A DNA stretch of 64,000 bases from Candidatus Woesearchaeota archaeon (GTDB lineage: Archaea > Nanobdellota > Nanobdellia > SCGC-AAA011-G17 > JACPIM01), in NCBI GenBank assembly GCA_964513145.1, contig CAZELK010000006.1, positions 10,081 to 74,080 of the forward strand. Reading direction: 5' to 3'. The first letter of the stretch is position 1, and every line of letters starts with the position of its first letter. This document shows, one piece after another, positions 41,597 through 62,914 of the stretch. Both the position numbers and the translations under genes were made by a program. The notes under the pieces were generated by a model. The model did not search any database. It had not been told where the DNA came from and worked only from the letters and a program-made list of their open reading frames with translations.

Positions 41597-41668
41597 GCCT
41601 CTGTAACTCAATGGCAGAGTGCCGCCTTCGTAAGGCGGAGGTTTTGGGTTCAAATCCCATCAGAGGCT
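41597..41668 (+). tRNA. tRNA-Thr(CGT), intronless
   Basis: GCCTCTG/CAGAGGC acceptor, CCGCC-TTCGTAA-GGCGG anticodon arm, GGGTTCAAATCCC, discriminator T. Confidence 0.95.
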
Positions 41669-41679
41669 TTATTACAAAA

Positions 41680-41823
41680 TTATTTTATTTTTTCACGTAA
41701 TTTGTTTAAAAGCTTATATTCCTCTTTTGTTGCATTACCTTCTTTGCACTTTGCTTCTAAGGCAGCAAGTTGCTCACGATATCCTTTTTGTACTTTAACT
41801 ATATCTTTTTTTCCACAACCCAT
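41680..41823 (-). CDS. 47-aa hypothetical microprotein
   Basis: MGCGKKDIVKVQKGYREQLAALEAKCKEGNATKEEYKLLNKLREKIK; TATA-like element upstream. Confidence 0.55.
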   Translation of the reverse strand: MGCGKKDIVKVQKGYREQLAALEAKCKEGNATKEEYKLLNKLREKIK

Positions 41824-43245: not shown

Positions 43246-43292
43246 TTTATGAAGAAAATTTTATAAAGTAACTACTTCTCTGTTCTTTTTAT

Positions 43293-43473
43293 GTGGGGGT
43301 GCCAGAGCCTGGTCAATAAGTTTGACTAAATGGGCAGGAACAGAGTTGCTAAACTCAGATTGCCAAACTTAAGATTTCCTATGAGAAATCCTGTGGCTTA
43401 GTGCCTACGCAGGTTCAAAATAAGCTTTTGGAGCTCGTAACTCCTAGAACTTAGGAAAGCCCTGTCCCCCACA
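43293..43473 (+). tRNA. tRNA-Leu(TAA) with four introns (21/22, 30/31, 37/38, 59/60)
   Basis: Exons 43293-43316, 43330-43338, 43367-43373, 43388-43419 and 43460-43473 give an 86-nt class II cloverleaf (GTGGGGG/CCCCCAC, CAGGA-CTTAAGA-TCCTG); each junction fits BHB geometry. Confidence 0.85.
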
Positions 43474-43607: not shown

Positions 43608-43732
43608 GCCTGGGTAGCTTAGCTAGTGGAGCACAGAATTCGCTCAGACCCTTGGTATAAACTTTGAAAGTTTTTATCAAAGCTAAGAAAACAAAAAGGG
43701 TGAGGTCGCGGGCGCAAATCCCGTCCTAGGCT
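43608..43732 (+). tRNA. tRNA-Thr(GGT) with two introns (27/28, 37/38)
   Basis: GCCTGGG/CCTAGGC acceptor, U73; removing 43635-43647 and 43658-43696 gives CACCC-TTGGTAA-GGGTG. Confidence 0.8.
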
Positions 43733-53029: not shown

Positions 53030-56000
53030 ATGTTAGGTCAAAATAAAGAGGTTATAGAGTTCAAGCCGATTTTTTACATAAATCCAAGACCAGAGATAGC
53101 TGAATTACCTGATGTAAAAGAAAAGCAAAAAATAGATGTGAGATATGTTTTATTAGAACCTTATGTAAATGCACATATTTTCTGGGACAAAGAAAACAAT
53201 GAACTTGTATATTATGTTGAAGAACCACAATTAGATGAAAAAGAATTAAATGTCCTGAATATTTTAGAAAATGGGATAAATGAATTAATAAACATCAGCT
53301 TTATTGCAATGAAAAATACTGATGTTGTAGTTGAATATTTAGAAAAAAACATAAGGGTTTTATTAAATGAATTGAAAATAAGCATTTCCAAAGAATCTTA
53401 TTTAAAATTAATGTATTATATTTACAGAGATTTTGTTGGACTAAATGAAATTGAGCCTTTGCTAAAGGATTATTATATTGAAGATATTGAATGCAATGGT
53501 GTTAATACTCCAATTTACATTGTCCATAGAAAATACAGGAATTTAAGAACAAATATTATTTTTAAAGATGCAAAAGAATTAACTAGTTTTGTAGAAAAAT
53601 TAGCACAAAAATGCGGGAAATATATATCTTATGCTTCCCCTTTATTAGACGCAAGTTTGCCAGATGGGTCGCGTATTCAAGCAACATTCACGCAAGATAT
53701 TTCTTCAAGAGGACCAAGTTTTTGCTTTGCTGACGGATATTTACAATTAAATAATGGCGAGGTTGTGAAAATAAATAAATTATTTGAAAAATGTAAAAAT
53801 GACTTTGGTTCAAGTTTTGATAAAGAAAATGAAATTGTTAATGTAACTAATGTTGGTGTTTGCGGAGTTGATGAAAATAATTTAAAACAAATTGATTCTA
53901 AACTAAAAACTATAATAAAATTGAAACCACCTGAAGAATTAGTAAATATTGGATTTGATGATGGTTCAGAAATAATCACAACTACAAACCACTTATTTCA
54001 TGTGGTGGATAATGATTTAAGCCTTTTAGAAGCACATAAATTAAAAACCGGGTTGTTTGTACCTATGCCTTCTAAAGTAGATGTAGAGGGTTGCATGCAA
54101 TCTATCAACATAGTCAATTTAATAAAGGAATTTTCTTATTTATATAAAGTCTGTCTAGTTTCAAACCAAGAAATTAAAAACATAGTTTCCAACAATATTG
54201 ATTTTTATAAAAATAAAAGCAGAGATTATAGAATACAAATGGCTCAGGACTATACAGTACATAATTCTTATTTCTATGAGATTCTTTCAAGAGGAAGCTC
54301 AATTTCTTTTGAAGTTCTTAATGAAATATGTGATCTTAATTCTCTGGATGAAATCAATTTAGTTGTTTATGGCGGTCCTGTTAAAAAAGAAAGAAAATCT
54401 ATAAATGTACCAAAAATTTTAGATGAGGAATTAGCTTATCTGGCTGGTGCTATAATTAGTGATGGTCATCTCAGTAAATATAGTATTGATATTGCTTGTT
54501 ATAATACTGGATTTACAAATGCGGTTACTACCAGACTAAAAAATAAATTTGGGAAATTTAATGTCTATTATAATGGTACCAGAGTTTATTTGTGCAATCT
54601 ATTTGTGCCTTTTTTCTTCAATAAAATATTTGGCATACCTTATGGAAGGAAAGCAAAAATTGTAAATATTCCGGAGATAATATTTAAATCAGATAATAAA
54701 ATAATTGCCGCTTTTTTAAAAGGTTTATTTGACGGTGATGGGACATGCAAATCTGGAATAAGCTATAAAACAAGCTCCAAAGAACTTGCAGAACAATTAA
54801 CTTATTTATTAGCCAGATTAGGGTTATATTCCAAAATTATACTTAAAAAGAATATGTATAGAGTTCTTATACCGTCAATTTATGAAAATATTTATTCTGA
54901 AAAAATTAATTTTTGTGATACTTTTAAAATTAAATGTTTGAGCGAGTTACTTTTGAAGAAAGGAAATAATGCCAAATCTTATATTAGACATGGCAGAGTC
55001 CCTGCAAAACCCATCCTGAACTTAATGAAAGATGTGGGTTTATCTAAAAATAAAGCAAGTAAATTATGTAAAGTGAGCTATAACAGATTAGTACATTATG
55101 ACTCCTTGTCAAAACCTTTTGTTAAACAAATAATTAGTTTAATAGAATTGGAAATAGAAAACAAGGGGATAAAAAACTGCAAATTAGACTACATAAAATG
55201 GTTAGTTGGATGTGAACAAGAATTTGTTAAAATTAAACATGTAAAAATCTTTGAAAATAAAAATAAAATACCAGTTTATGATATAGAATTAGAACCTTGT
55301 AAATTCTTTATAGCTGGAAACAAACCAATGAATATTTTTGATACAGTTAGAAAATTTACAAAAGACCCATGGACCCCAGTTAAATTAATGCAATTTAAAA
55401 CAGTTTCACCAGAAATTTTGGCTTATCTCTGGCTGTTAATAGAAAATGAAGCAAATATAATGATAATCGGCGGAACTGGTTCTGGAAAAACTTCTTTTCT
55501 GAACTCGATTGCTTTTTTTATTCCGCCAGCAGCAAGGGTTGTTTCAATTGAGGATAGTGTCACTGGAGACTCCGAGATTATATATAAAAATAAAGATAAA
55601 ATTGAAAAATTAACAATAGGTAAATTAACAAAATTAGTAAATAGTAAAAAAATTAATTTAGAAAACATTGAAATTTTGACAGTAGATGATGACTGGAAAG
55701 TCAGATTTGGAAAACCCAGCAAATTTATAAAACATTCAACAAATAAAGATATATTCAAAATTACAACTTCGACTGGCAGAATAATAGAGGTAACAAAAGA
55801 TCATTCTTTGTTTACACTAACCACTTCCGGATTAGTTGAAGTAAAACCAGAGAATTTAGAAGAAAATGTATCCTGTATTGCTGTTCCCAGAGTTCTGCCT
55901 ATAGAAGGAAAAGGTTTTTTTGATATTAATTTAATTAATCATTTAAATTATTTTAATGAAGATTTTTTAATTGGTAAACCAATTCAAAAAATTTTAAGCA

Positions 56001-59000
56001 AATACAAATACAATCATTTTAAAGTTAGCAAATCAACACATCAGTGGTGGAAAAAAAGGAATATAATCCCAATTAGATTCTTTAAAAAATTAAAATATAA
56101 ATTTTCTAATGATGAATTAAAGAAACTATTTATAAAAAGTAAGAATTCGACAAAAATCCCAGTTATTTTTGAATTTGATGATGACTTTATTAAATTAATT
56201 GGTTTATGGATTGGAGATGGATCTCACGATAATCATAATAGAAATAGAACTATTTTTTCCTGCAATGAACCTGATTGTGTAGATATTTATAAAAGAATTA
56301 GTGAAAAACTAAAGATAAATATTTCTCTTATGGATGACAATTGGTCATGGGGTTTTAACAGCACTATTTTTTATAAATTTACCAAATATATTTTAAATTT
56401 AGATGGCTATGCAAAGGACAAAAAAATTCCAGACTTTGTTTATAATTTTACAAATGAACAATTAAAGCATTTTATCTCAGGATATTTTAGTGCTGATGGC
56501 ACAGTTAAGAAAAATGAAGTTTCGTGTTGTTCTGAAAGCAGGGATATTATTAATAGTATTCAGACTTTATTATTAAGATTTGGCATCATATCAAGAGCCA
56601 GCAAAACTGTTAGAAAAGATAACTGCAAGGAGTTAAATATATCTTCTTATGAAAACATAAATAAATTTAAATGCATAAACTTCATACAGAAAAGACAAAA
56701 TGATAAGCTTTCGCTTATAGGTAATTCTATTCCAACACATGCAAATTCAGACATTATTCCATTAAATCCAAACTGGTTTGAAGAGCTATCAAATTATAAA
56801 CAATATTTTAAAGACTATCACAATGTAAACAATAGTTTTCCTGGGAGAACATTTATGACTAATTTTATTTCAGAACCAAGTTTAGATATCCCCAAAGAAT
56901 GCTTTAGTTTTTTGGGAAAAATTGTAAATTCTGATTTATTGTGGGATAAAGTTGTAAAAATTGAAAAATTACCAAAAAAATCCAGGTATGTTTATGATAT
57001 CTCTGTTCCTGGAACTGAGAAGTTTATTTCCCAAAATATTTTATTACATAACACCAGGGAGCTTGCGCTTCTACATGAAAACTGGCTGCCTGGTGTAACA
57101 AGAGAGGGTGTTGGAATAAGTAATTTGCTTGGCACTAAAGAGGGAGATATAACTTTGTTTGATTTATTAAGGGAAAGCTTTAGGCAGAGACCAGACTATG
57201 TTATTGTTGGAGAAATTAGGGGAAAAGAGGCTTATGTTTTATTTCAAGGAATGAGTTCACTTAGGGGAGATGAAGAAATTTTTATATTAAATAATAATAG
57301 ACCGTTAAGGATAAAAATCACGGAGTTAGAAAATTTTGATATAAAAAATCTAAAGGCAGTTTGCTATGACACAGAAAATAAAAAGGCAGAAATTCTACCA
57401 ATTCAGGCTTTTATAAAACACCCAAAAAGAAATACTTTATACAAAATTATTACAAAAAAAGGCAGAGAGATAACTGTTACTCCAGATCATTCTTTATTTA
57501 CATTAAAAGAAAACAAAATCGTTGATATAAAAACTAATGAATTAGTTATAGGGAGTAAATTAATAATTCCTTCAAATATTCCTTGTGGATATAATAACAT
57601 TGATAAAATTAATTTATTCGAATATTTACCAGATATTAGAGTTTATGCACCGGAATATATCAAAGAAGCTTCTAATAAATTGGGATATTATCAAGCTAGC
57701 GCTTTATGTGATTGCTGCAGCATTACAGACTATTATTCGAATTTTAAAAGAAGCAAGCCTAGTGCTATGAAATCTGAAAAATTTTTAAAATTAATGAGTG
57801 AAGCTAAAATAGACTTTGATATAAAAAAATTAGAATTTAGATATGACAGAAAAAGTAAATCTATTAATGGGTTTTTGGAAATTAATGATGACTTTTTAAA
57901 ATTGCTGGGATATTACCTTTCAGAAGGGTCATTAGATGATTGTGAGGGAAATAGCAGCATTGTTCTATATAATAAAAAAGAAGCTGTTTTAGAAGACATG
58001 AGAAATTGCATTTACAAATTAACCAATAATAAACCAAATGAAAGAATTACAGAAGGATATGGCACTTGTTTAGAATTATCGTTTAATCATAAAGTTTTAT
58101 TTGAATTTATAAAAAGAAACTGTATGAAGAGACAAGGAAAAAGAATACCTGATTTTATTTTCGGTCTAGATAAAAGAAAAATTGGAGTATTTTTATCTGC
58201 ATTATATTGCGGTGATGGAACTATAAAACAAAGTCACTTTGATTATTATACAACATCAAAGAACCTTGCAAATGATGTTACACAATTATTATTAGTTTAT
58301 GGAATTGTTGCCAAAATTGGAAAAAGAAACAGAGTTGGAAGAAAAACTACTGACTATGAAATTAAGTTTTATATGTCTTATAAAAAAGAAGAATTTTTGA
58401 AATATGTCAAACCTATTGGAAAAGAAATTGATTTGAAGGTATTTAATAAAAAAGACTATAATTTATTAGGCGAGCTATATTGTGATGAAATTAAATCCAT
58501 AGAAATTCTTGAGTTAGATAAACCAGAATATGTTTATGATGTTTCTGTGCCTAAAAATCAGAATTTTATTGCTGGTTTTGGAGGTATATTAGCACATAAT
58601 TCTGGCCATCCATCGTTCGGAACTATGCATGCTGAAGATGTTGAGACTATGGTAAGAAGATTAGAAACTCCGCCAATTGAATTGTCGCCTTCTTTAGTTG
58701 AAAGCCTTGATGCTGTATGTGTTATTACACAAGCAAAAGTTGATAATAAAGATGTCAGAAGAATCAGGGAAGTTGTTGAAATTATAAAAATTAATGAGGG
58801 CTCGAATGTTGACACAAATACTCCTTTTACATGGGATCCTAAAACAGACAATTTTTATTTCAAAGAGGAAAGCAAGGTTTTTGACAAAATAGTGCTGCAT
58901 AAAGGAATAAGCAAGGAAAAACTTTACAGGGAGTTTATTTTGAGGACTAAATTGTTAATGGCTTTATATGCCAGAAACATAACTGGTTTTAAGGAAGTTT

Positions 59001-62501: not shown

Positions 62502-62914
62502 AATACAAATTTTTAGACCACACTGCAGACATAATGTTTGAAGCATACGGCAATTCTTTAAATAAATTATTTGAAAATTCTGCATTAGCTACAGAAGCAA
62601 CCATGGTTGATTTAAAACAGATTAAACAGGATACTCAAAGAAAGGTTAATTTAAAAAACCAAAGTATAGAAACTTTGCTTTATGACTTCTTGTCTGAATT
62701 ATTGTATTTTAAAGATGCTGAACTTTTATTATTCTCGGATATTAAAGTTGAGATAAAGAAAAACAAAATTTACTTTTTAAAGGCAATTTTGTATGGGGAA
62801 AAATTAACTGAAGAACATTCACAAAAAGTTGATGTCAAGGCAGTAACATTCCATAAATTTGAAATCAAGAAAAGAGCCAGAGATTATGTTGCCAGGGTAA
62901 TATTAGATATATGA
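62498..62914 (+). CDS. Archease (RtcB tRNA-ligase cofactor)
   Basis: YKFLDHTADIMFEAYG, LYDFLSELLY, VDVKAVTFHKF, VILDI. Confidence 0.95.
   Translation: MKYKFLDHTADIMFEAYGNSLNKLFENSALATEATMVDLKQIKQDTQRKVNLKNQSIETLLYDFLSELLYFKDAELLLFSDIKVEIKKNKIYFLKAILYGEKLTEEHSQKVDVKAVTFHKFEIKKRARDYVARVILDI

Follow-up and report, generated by a model that had tools for sequence, protein, structure and literature searches.

The DNA analyzed in the current work (hereafter "the window") is a stretch of 64,000 nt from a Woesearchaeota genome. Its positions 43293-43473 contain a tRNA-Leu(UAA) gene whose mature sequence is interrupted by four short inserts, and the elements of this locus are, from 5' to 3':

43260..43267 (+), TATA-box-like sequence TTTATAAA, about 33 nt upstream of the mature 5' end, read from the sequence as a putative promoter element
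43293..43316 (+), exon 1, 24 nt: 5' strand of the acceptor stem, 5' strand of the D-stem, and D-loop to position 21
43317..43329 (+), intron 1, 13 nt, at 21/22: helix GGTC/GACT (one G.U), bulges AA|T and AA|A
43330..43338 (+), exon 2, 9 nt: end of the D-loop, 3' strand of the D-stem, and positions 26-30
43339..43366 (+), intron 2, 28 nt, at 30/31: helix GGCA/TGCC, bulges GG|A and AA|A, inner hairpin GAGTT/AACTC
43367..43373 (+), exon 3, 7 nt, ACTTAAG: positions 31-37 including the anticodon UAA
43374..43387 (+), intron 3, 14 nt, at the canonical site 37/38: helix CTTA/TGAG (one G.U), bulges AG|A and AA|A
43388..43419 (+), exon 4, 32 nt: 3' strand of the anticodon stem, long variable arm, 5' strand of the T-stem, and T-loop to A59
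43420..43459 (+), intron 4, 40 nt, at 59/60: helix TTCA/GGAA (A.G mismatch), bulges AA|A and AG|C, outer helix formed by the T-stem and inner helix TAAG/CTTA
43460..43473 (+), exon 5, 14 nt: C60, 3' strand of the T-stem, 3' strand of the acceptor stem, and A73; CCA is not encoded

Subtraction of the four inserts leaves an RNA of 86 nt, which ARAGORN, when supplied with the joined exons, calls tRNA-Leu(taa); the corresponding drawing has a 7-bp acceptor stem, a leucine anticodon, a long variable arm, the T-loop TTCAAAC and A73, being the features that characterize a class II tRNA-Leu. This call bears out the 86-nt leucine cloverleaf with A73 proposed in an initial annotation of the window, whose coordinates, lengths, four central helices, and T-stem and TAAG/CTTA helices around site 4 were likewise all recovered as given. 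The minimum-energy fold of the 86-nt product computed with ViennaRNA is not a cloverleaf, which we regard as usual for unmodified tRNA sequences and as uninformative. A T-rich stretch is present 3' of A73, while a TTTATAA(A) box occurs at a similar upstream distance in most of the orthologues printed (L002-L005, L007, L009, L010, L012-L014, L018 and L019).

In its unspliced form the gene was missed by both ARAGORN and Rfam, for which the only match in the window is a tRNA-Thr(CGU) at 41597-41668, and a search of the entire genome with the Rfam tRNA models at E<=1 did not recover it either. An apparent tRNA match ending at C6:51856 (about position 41776 of the window) was rejected as not being a tRNA. 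The five exons are colinear within 181 nt and are preceded by one TATA-like box, which distinguishes this gene from the split or permuted tRNA genes, with separate loci or permuted order, that occur in Nanoarchaeum, Caldivirga and Thermofilum. Similarly, the inserts of 13-40 nt have no Rfam match at gathering thresholds and are far from the ribozyme core of hundreds of nucleotides expected for a group I or group II self-splicing intron.

Orthologues were retrieved from many of 60 relatives by a DNA search, in which exon 4 emerged as the best-conserved segment of the gene, and the mature sequence was aligned to them in a spliced manner with an aligner that is blind to BHB motifs. Excision restores a canonical cloverleaf matching uninterrupted orthologues; in relative G049, whose Leu(UAA) gene has no intron, 77 of 86 positions are identical to the joined exons. 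Across the orthologues the exons are kept and the inserts vary, with 0, 1, 2, 3, 4 or 5 introns distributed over six insertion sites, and each of the four inserts of the window gene is missing at the identical junction in some relative (for example, exon 1 runs directly into exon 2 sequence in L003, L004, L018 and L020, which are without intron 1). Representative arrangements are the following:

L034 (G010): zero introns
L018, L020 and L029: 37/38 only
L036: 59/60 only
L039: one D-loop intron only
L004: 30/31 and 37/38
L002 (G008): introns 1-3 at 86% identity, with a near-identical 13-nt intron 1; intron 4 absent
L009 and L016: 21/22, 37/38 and 59/60
L025 (G011): all four sites of the window gene occupied
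L005 (G055): four introns, at about 16/17, 21/22, 30/31 and 37/38
L011 (G045): four introns, at 30/31, 37/38, 53/54 and 59/60, with a 6-nt exon TTCAAA

At 21/22, introns longer than that of the window gene are present in L008, L009, L016 and L025, and the site of intron 3 is occupied in most orthologues, being empty in L034, L036 and L039. Intron 4 is absent from L002 and from three genomes of the same genus; a homologue by sequence (ATAAG...CTTAGGAAA) is located at 59/60 in L011 (G045), and other introns occupy this site in L009, L016, L025 and L036. The over-extended 5' ends with spurious large "introns" that the aligner produced for L006, L008, L011, L033, L034, L101, L116, L118 and a Tyr hit were corrected or ignored by eye.

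Two sequence elements shared between introns were noted during this comparison. The 30/31 intron has a 14-nt core, TGCTAAACTCAGAT (window positions 43348-43361; TGCCAAACTCAGAT in L002), which is common to several families while the rest of the intron differs, being seen in L002, L003, L005, L007 and L090 in addition to the window gene. Its interpretation as a dispersed repeat was rejected, there being one exact copy in the genome and hits with two mismatches at the level of the control. Furthermore, a motif GCTTTTCTT...GAAAGAAAACC...GGAAAAGAA, of which the four introns of the window gene hold no obvious copy, recurs in D-loop, 30/31 or 53/54 introns of L013, L019, L021, L023, L024, L009 and L025.

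With the exon boundaries fixed by alignment, each junction was assessed for a BHB core, in which four exon bases ending two before the 5' cut pair with four intron bases ending two before the 3' cut. At the register restoring the mature sequence, all four sites of the window gene combine a 4-bp helix with a 3-nt bulge on either side, with 4/4, 4/4, 4/4 and 3/4 pairs for sites 1 to 4, respectively. Random placements of equal length and with an equal number of equivalent registers give 4/4 pairs in 5% and 3/4 pairs in 21% of cases, and the joint chance of helix scores of 4, 4, 4 and 3, as the product of these null frequencies, is about 3e-5; the agreement of the four sites with the motif is far beyond chance. 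When 50 introns of orthologues were positioned solely by alignment, the central helix was complete (4/4) in 35 and had 3/4 pairs in 11, the four outliers being misplacements by the aligner. In the printed sequences of L022 and L027, moreover, helix 2 co-varies, in that A28 is changed to T and the intron TGCC to GGCT with pairing kept.

The strict hBHBh' form of the motif, with helices of at least 2 bp beside both bulges, is not seen across the gene as a whole: both flanks are present at site 4 only, where they are provided by the 5-bp T-stem and the 4-bp TAAG/CTTA helix. The outer helix of site 3 is the anticodon stem, which becomes available only once intron 2 has been removed, and next to the bulges of sites 1 and 2 no more than a single flanking pair is present. 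Under the definitions of Marck and Grosjean, as restated in a preprint (bioRxiv 10.64898/2026.10.13.758758), sites 1 and 2 are minimal or relaxed motifs.

The genome encodes the splicing endonuclease EndA as well as the RNA ligase RtcB and its cofactor archease, as follows:

G000:C7:33755-34318 (-), EndA, single gene, 188 aa, alpha-type, PF02778 and PF01974 (PF01974 E 3.7e-31)
C6:75368-78150, RtcB, PF01139, E 1.6e-142, just outside the window
62504..62911 (+), archease, PF01951, E 8.9e-41 (G000:C6:72584-72991)

The archease gene confirms the presence of this cofactor in the window as originally read. No beta-type or second EndA subunit was found in the whole genome with the EndA Pfam model at E<=1 or with this EndA protein as query at E<=10. 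The source names of its closest homologues place the lineage in Woesearchaeota. Residues 42-188 of EndA align without gaps to the alpha4 EndA of M. jannaschii (1A79), and the protein is without the 2- and 4-residue insertions that the catalytic subunit of N. equitans has just before the catalytic histidine. The N. equitans insertion near this histidine may correspond to L3, and from the alignments the EndA of this genome seems to be devoid of the L1, L2 and L3 inserts in the aligned region. The relaxed-specificity EndA that had been postulated for this gene was not borne out: the sole enzyme is gap-free relative to that of M. jannaschii over these residues, no paralogue was found, and all sites contain a 3-4-3 core, though sites 1 and 2 have no adjacent flanking helices. 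The EndA gene is arranged head-to-head with a 316-aa ORF of the metallo-beta-lactamase fold which resembles RNase Z, the tRNA 3' processing enzyme (L040, G000:C7:32279-35539).

The Pfam match of RtcB is in two parts, corresponding to profile positions 1-44 and 49-426 and being separated by about 1.4 kb, with the second located within an 879-aa frame; the tRNA ligase itself is thus probably interrupted by an intein. Elsewhere in the window, a frame of about 2013 aa at 54704-58375 (+) (G000:C6:64784-68455) carries four LAGLIDADG_3 matches (three strong, the other weak), pointing to a host protein into which several inteins are inserted; the whole genome contains 24 LAGLIDADG_3 matches.

The order in which the introns could be removed was approached by folding of the precursor and of its intermediates, with all costs given here being nearest-neighbour predictions. 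Before any excision, the predicted probabilities are 0.98 for helix 1, 0.96 for helix 2 and 0.00 for helix 3, the last of which becomes 0.58 once intron 2 is excised. Forcing the motif in the primary transcript costs +4.6 kcal/mol at site 1, +1.8 kcal/mol at site 2, +5.0 kcal/mol at site 3 and +8.1 kcal/mol at site 4. At site 3 this cost falls to +1.2 kcal/mol following removal of intron 2, which supports an order in which intron 2 would probably be excised before intron 3. The initial annotation had proposed that splicing is ordered, and of this proposal the step placing intron 2 before intron 3 is retained, its support being in silico. The cost at site 4 is high because of a competing 13-bp hairpin between 43406-43420 and 43426-43439, and it amounts to +3.3 to +4.7 kcal/mol after removal of intron 1, of introns 1 and 2, or of introns 1, 2 and 3; it is at site 4 that the model is weakest. 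A pairing of TTCAAAA with TTTAGGA, similar to the 13-bp hairpin of the window gene, seems possible in the L011 homologue of this intron.

From these observations we consider it highly probable that 43293-43473 represents a functional, single-copy tRNA-Leu(UAA) gene with four BHB introns which are spliced by EndA and RtcB/archease. A single precursor of about 181 nt would be transcribed from the upstream TATA-like box, after which the introns at 21/22, 30/31, 37/38 and 59/60 would each pair with adjacent bases of the exons to give a 3-4-3 BHB core, allowing the single alpha-type EndA to cut following the second bulge base on either side. RtcB and archease would then join the five exons to generate an 86-nt class II tRNA with A73, to which CCA would be added afterwards. 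Splicing itself, its order and the acceptance by EndA of sites without flanking helices are in this scheme what we infer from the sequence, and several features count against it: sites 1 and 2 are without flanks, site 4 has an A.G mismatch as well as the competing hairpin, EndA carries no insert in the aligned region when compared to the narrow-specificity enzyme of M. jannaschii, and the draft assembly may lack a second copy.

In an alternative reading the gene is real and not every insert is an intron for EndA, such that, for example, the 13-nt D-loop insert is retained or intron 4 is removed inefficiently because of the competing hairpin, with little or no working tRNA as the outcome. This reading draws on the weakness of the helices that flank sites 1 and 2 and on the cost of 3-8 kcal/mol for the site 4 motif in every folding intermediate tested, but we judge it very unlikely, given that only one register restores the orthologous mature sequence and that, in this register, every insert border falls on a 3-4-3 core that is perfect or nearly so, that homologous introns persist at the same sites in several genomes, and that the locus is the only decoder found for the commonest leucine codon.

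The last point derives from a genome-wide spliced alignment using as references 61 intact tRNAs from two relatives, which recovered one Leu(UAA) locus in addition to Leu(CAA) with two introns and Leu(UAG) with three introns; no second Leu(UAA) gene was found in the genome, which is 98.8% complete and represented by a draft of 18 contigs. With a G+C content of 29%, this genome uses UUA for 56% of its leucine codons, corresponding to 54 per 1000 codons. A decaying pseudogene, with the working Leu(UAA) gene being in unassembled sequence, could be accommodated by the draft state of the assembly, yet is even less probable than incomplete splicing because the locus is the sole one found for Leu(UAA), because UUA is the commonest leucine codon and because the TATA-like box is conserved. 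Furthermore, all stems pair, no damage is seen in the anticodon loop, the T-loop or A73, and versions with four introns, their exons no less intact, are retained by at least 13 other genomes. The locus is a real gene, which is almost certainly functional and spliced four times.

An assembly artefact, in which chimeric joins have created the inserts, is barely conceivable, as no support for it was found, introns 1-3 recur at 86% identity in the independent genome G008, the same four sites are occupied in G011, and a homologue of intron 4 is present in G045. The exact junction between exon 4 and intron 4 had no match in a metagenome contig collection, which may omit the records of this genome. 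A looser pattern for the 59/60 intron family matched five metagenome contigs, none of which was a Leu(UAA) gene, and the metagenome scans thus yielded no independently assembled copy of this allele.

The distribution of introns in Leu(UAA) genes was then determined across the order, where a pattern search of 240 genomes identified the combination of 30/31 and 37/38 introns in 41. Of these loci, 38 were examined by spliced alignment, which revealed four introns in 14 genomes, counting the window genome (G000). Together with the relatives described above, the survey of intron number in Woesearchaeota Leu(UAA) genes which the initial annotation had suggested gives a range of zero to five, with 13 further four-intron genomes and one five-intron genome. 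The latter, G219 (L115, contig C32, minus strand, 217 nt, locus position 329 on the reverse strand), has its introns at about 16/17, 21/22, 30/31, 37/38 and 59/60 with central pairs of 4, 4, 4, 4 and 3, and five is also the top count in the Asgard preprint of 2026. Genome G180 holds two Leu(UAA) genes (L112 on C1 and L113 on C2), with three and four introns, and this pair could be a true duplication, a strain mixture or contamination.

Within the window genome, ARAGORN detects eight intron-free tRNA genes. The genome scan, which is incomplete in that the noise floor of spliced alignment is high (scores of about 95-105 for 85-nt references) and heavily split genes are consequently missed when references are divergent, yielded about 31 tRNA genes, of which 6 are without an intron, about 12 have one, 9 have two, three have three (Ser-GCU, Leu-UAG and Met-CAU) and Leu(UAA) has four. 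In this genome it is thus normal for a tRNA gene to contain several introns.

The number of introns in an archaeal tRNA gene is put at "up to three" by reviews as well as by the tRNAscan-SE 2.0 paper (PMC8450103, PMC4390854), in line with the ceiling of approximately three introns assumed at first. This ceiling is outdated, since the tRNA table for Asgard archaea of Valentin-Alvarado 2024 (PMC11291895, Suppl. Data 4) contains columns to "intron 4", with a Lys-UUU row for which tRNAscan-SE indicates four and R2DT three, while a preprint of October 2026 reports a maximum of five introns per gene for Asgard archaea (bioRxiv 10.64898/2026.10.13.758758). The Leu(UAA) gene is a further case of a known multi-intron kind, and its four introns are no record; in the literature searched, no paper describing multi-intron tRNA genes in Woesearchaeota was found.

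Thermoproteales such as Pyrobaculum calidifontis (Sugahara 2007/2008, via PMC8450103 and PMC4390854) likewise have tRNA genes with several short BHB introns at canonical and non-canonical sites, so closely spaced that one must leave before the next motif forms, and these genes are missed by standard finders. They are described with up to three introns and are served by an (alpha-beta)2 EndA with a Crenarchaea-specific loop, whereas the gene of the window carries four introns, with five in one relative, and two of its exons measure only 7 and 9 nt; its host belongs to DPANN and has a lone alpha-type EndA with no detectable insert. The likeness to Asgard archaea lies in most tRNA genes being interrupted, in many introns being non-canonical, especially in the D-arm, and missed by annotators, and in repeated gains at sites able to form a BHB motif. 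Asgard archaea differ in belonging to another phylum, as opposed to the DPANN Woesearchaeota considered here, and in their EndAs, which carry the L1 loop (PMC5829648).

For DPANN genomes whose tRNA sets are incomplete, one from Woesearchaeota among them, Kaneta et al. 2018 (PMC5829648) predicted unidentified tRNA genes that are disrupted, and the Leu(UAA) gene is one such hidden disrupted gene. The same authors tied the inserts L1-L3 to broad EndA specificity and to tRNA gene disruption; the EndA described above differs in being gap-free against that of M. jannaschii and in lacking the N. equitans insertions. We tentatively propose, with somewhat less than even confidence, that Woesearchaeales tRNA genes are as fragmented as those of the most intron-rich Asgard archaea, with Leu(UAA) having six sites, 0-5 introns and exons as short as 6-7 nt, and with a single insert-free alpha-type EndA. 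If this is true, tRNA gene disruption is not tied to EndA inserts in the way that has been published, and an alpha4-like enzyme needs no more than a bare 3-4-3 core or, alternatively, this EndA has arrived at relaxed recognition by a new route.

The wider interest of these genes is at the level of the lineage, comprising the intron gain/loss series, the very short exons and the EndA without the expected inserts. The decoder of the most-used leucine codon is invisible to ARAGORN and Rfam, and with no more than 8 intron-free tRNA genes in this near-complete genome, tRNA counts of such genomes are badly underestimated. The range of 0-5 introns over six sites in 240 genomes, with homologous and non-homologous introns per site, represents material for the study of tRNA intron gain and loss, and the 7- and 9-nt exons, interlocked motifs and flank-less sites are concrete test substrates for an insert-free alpha-type EndA.

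Two further interrupted tRNA genes were noted in this genome. An initiator-like tRNA-Met(CAU) of 166 nt is located outside the window, at G000:C5:30086-30251 (-), between two free-standing LAGLIDADG ORFs; removal of four BHB-compatible inserts, for which the candidate boundaries are ambiguous, leaves a tRNA that is valid according to ARAGORN. The next gene 3' of Leu(UAA) is a hidden tRNA-Thr(GGU) at 43608-43732 (+) with two introns, at 43635-43647 (13 nt, about 27/28, GAGC/GCTC by eye) and at 43657-43695 (39 nt, at or next to 37/38). Its unspliced DNA yields no ARAGORN call, and the spliced 73-nt sequence is accepted by the same program.
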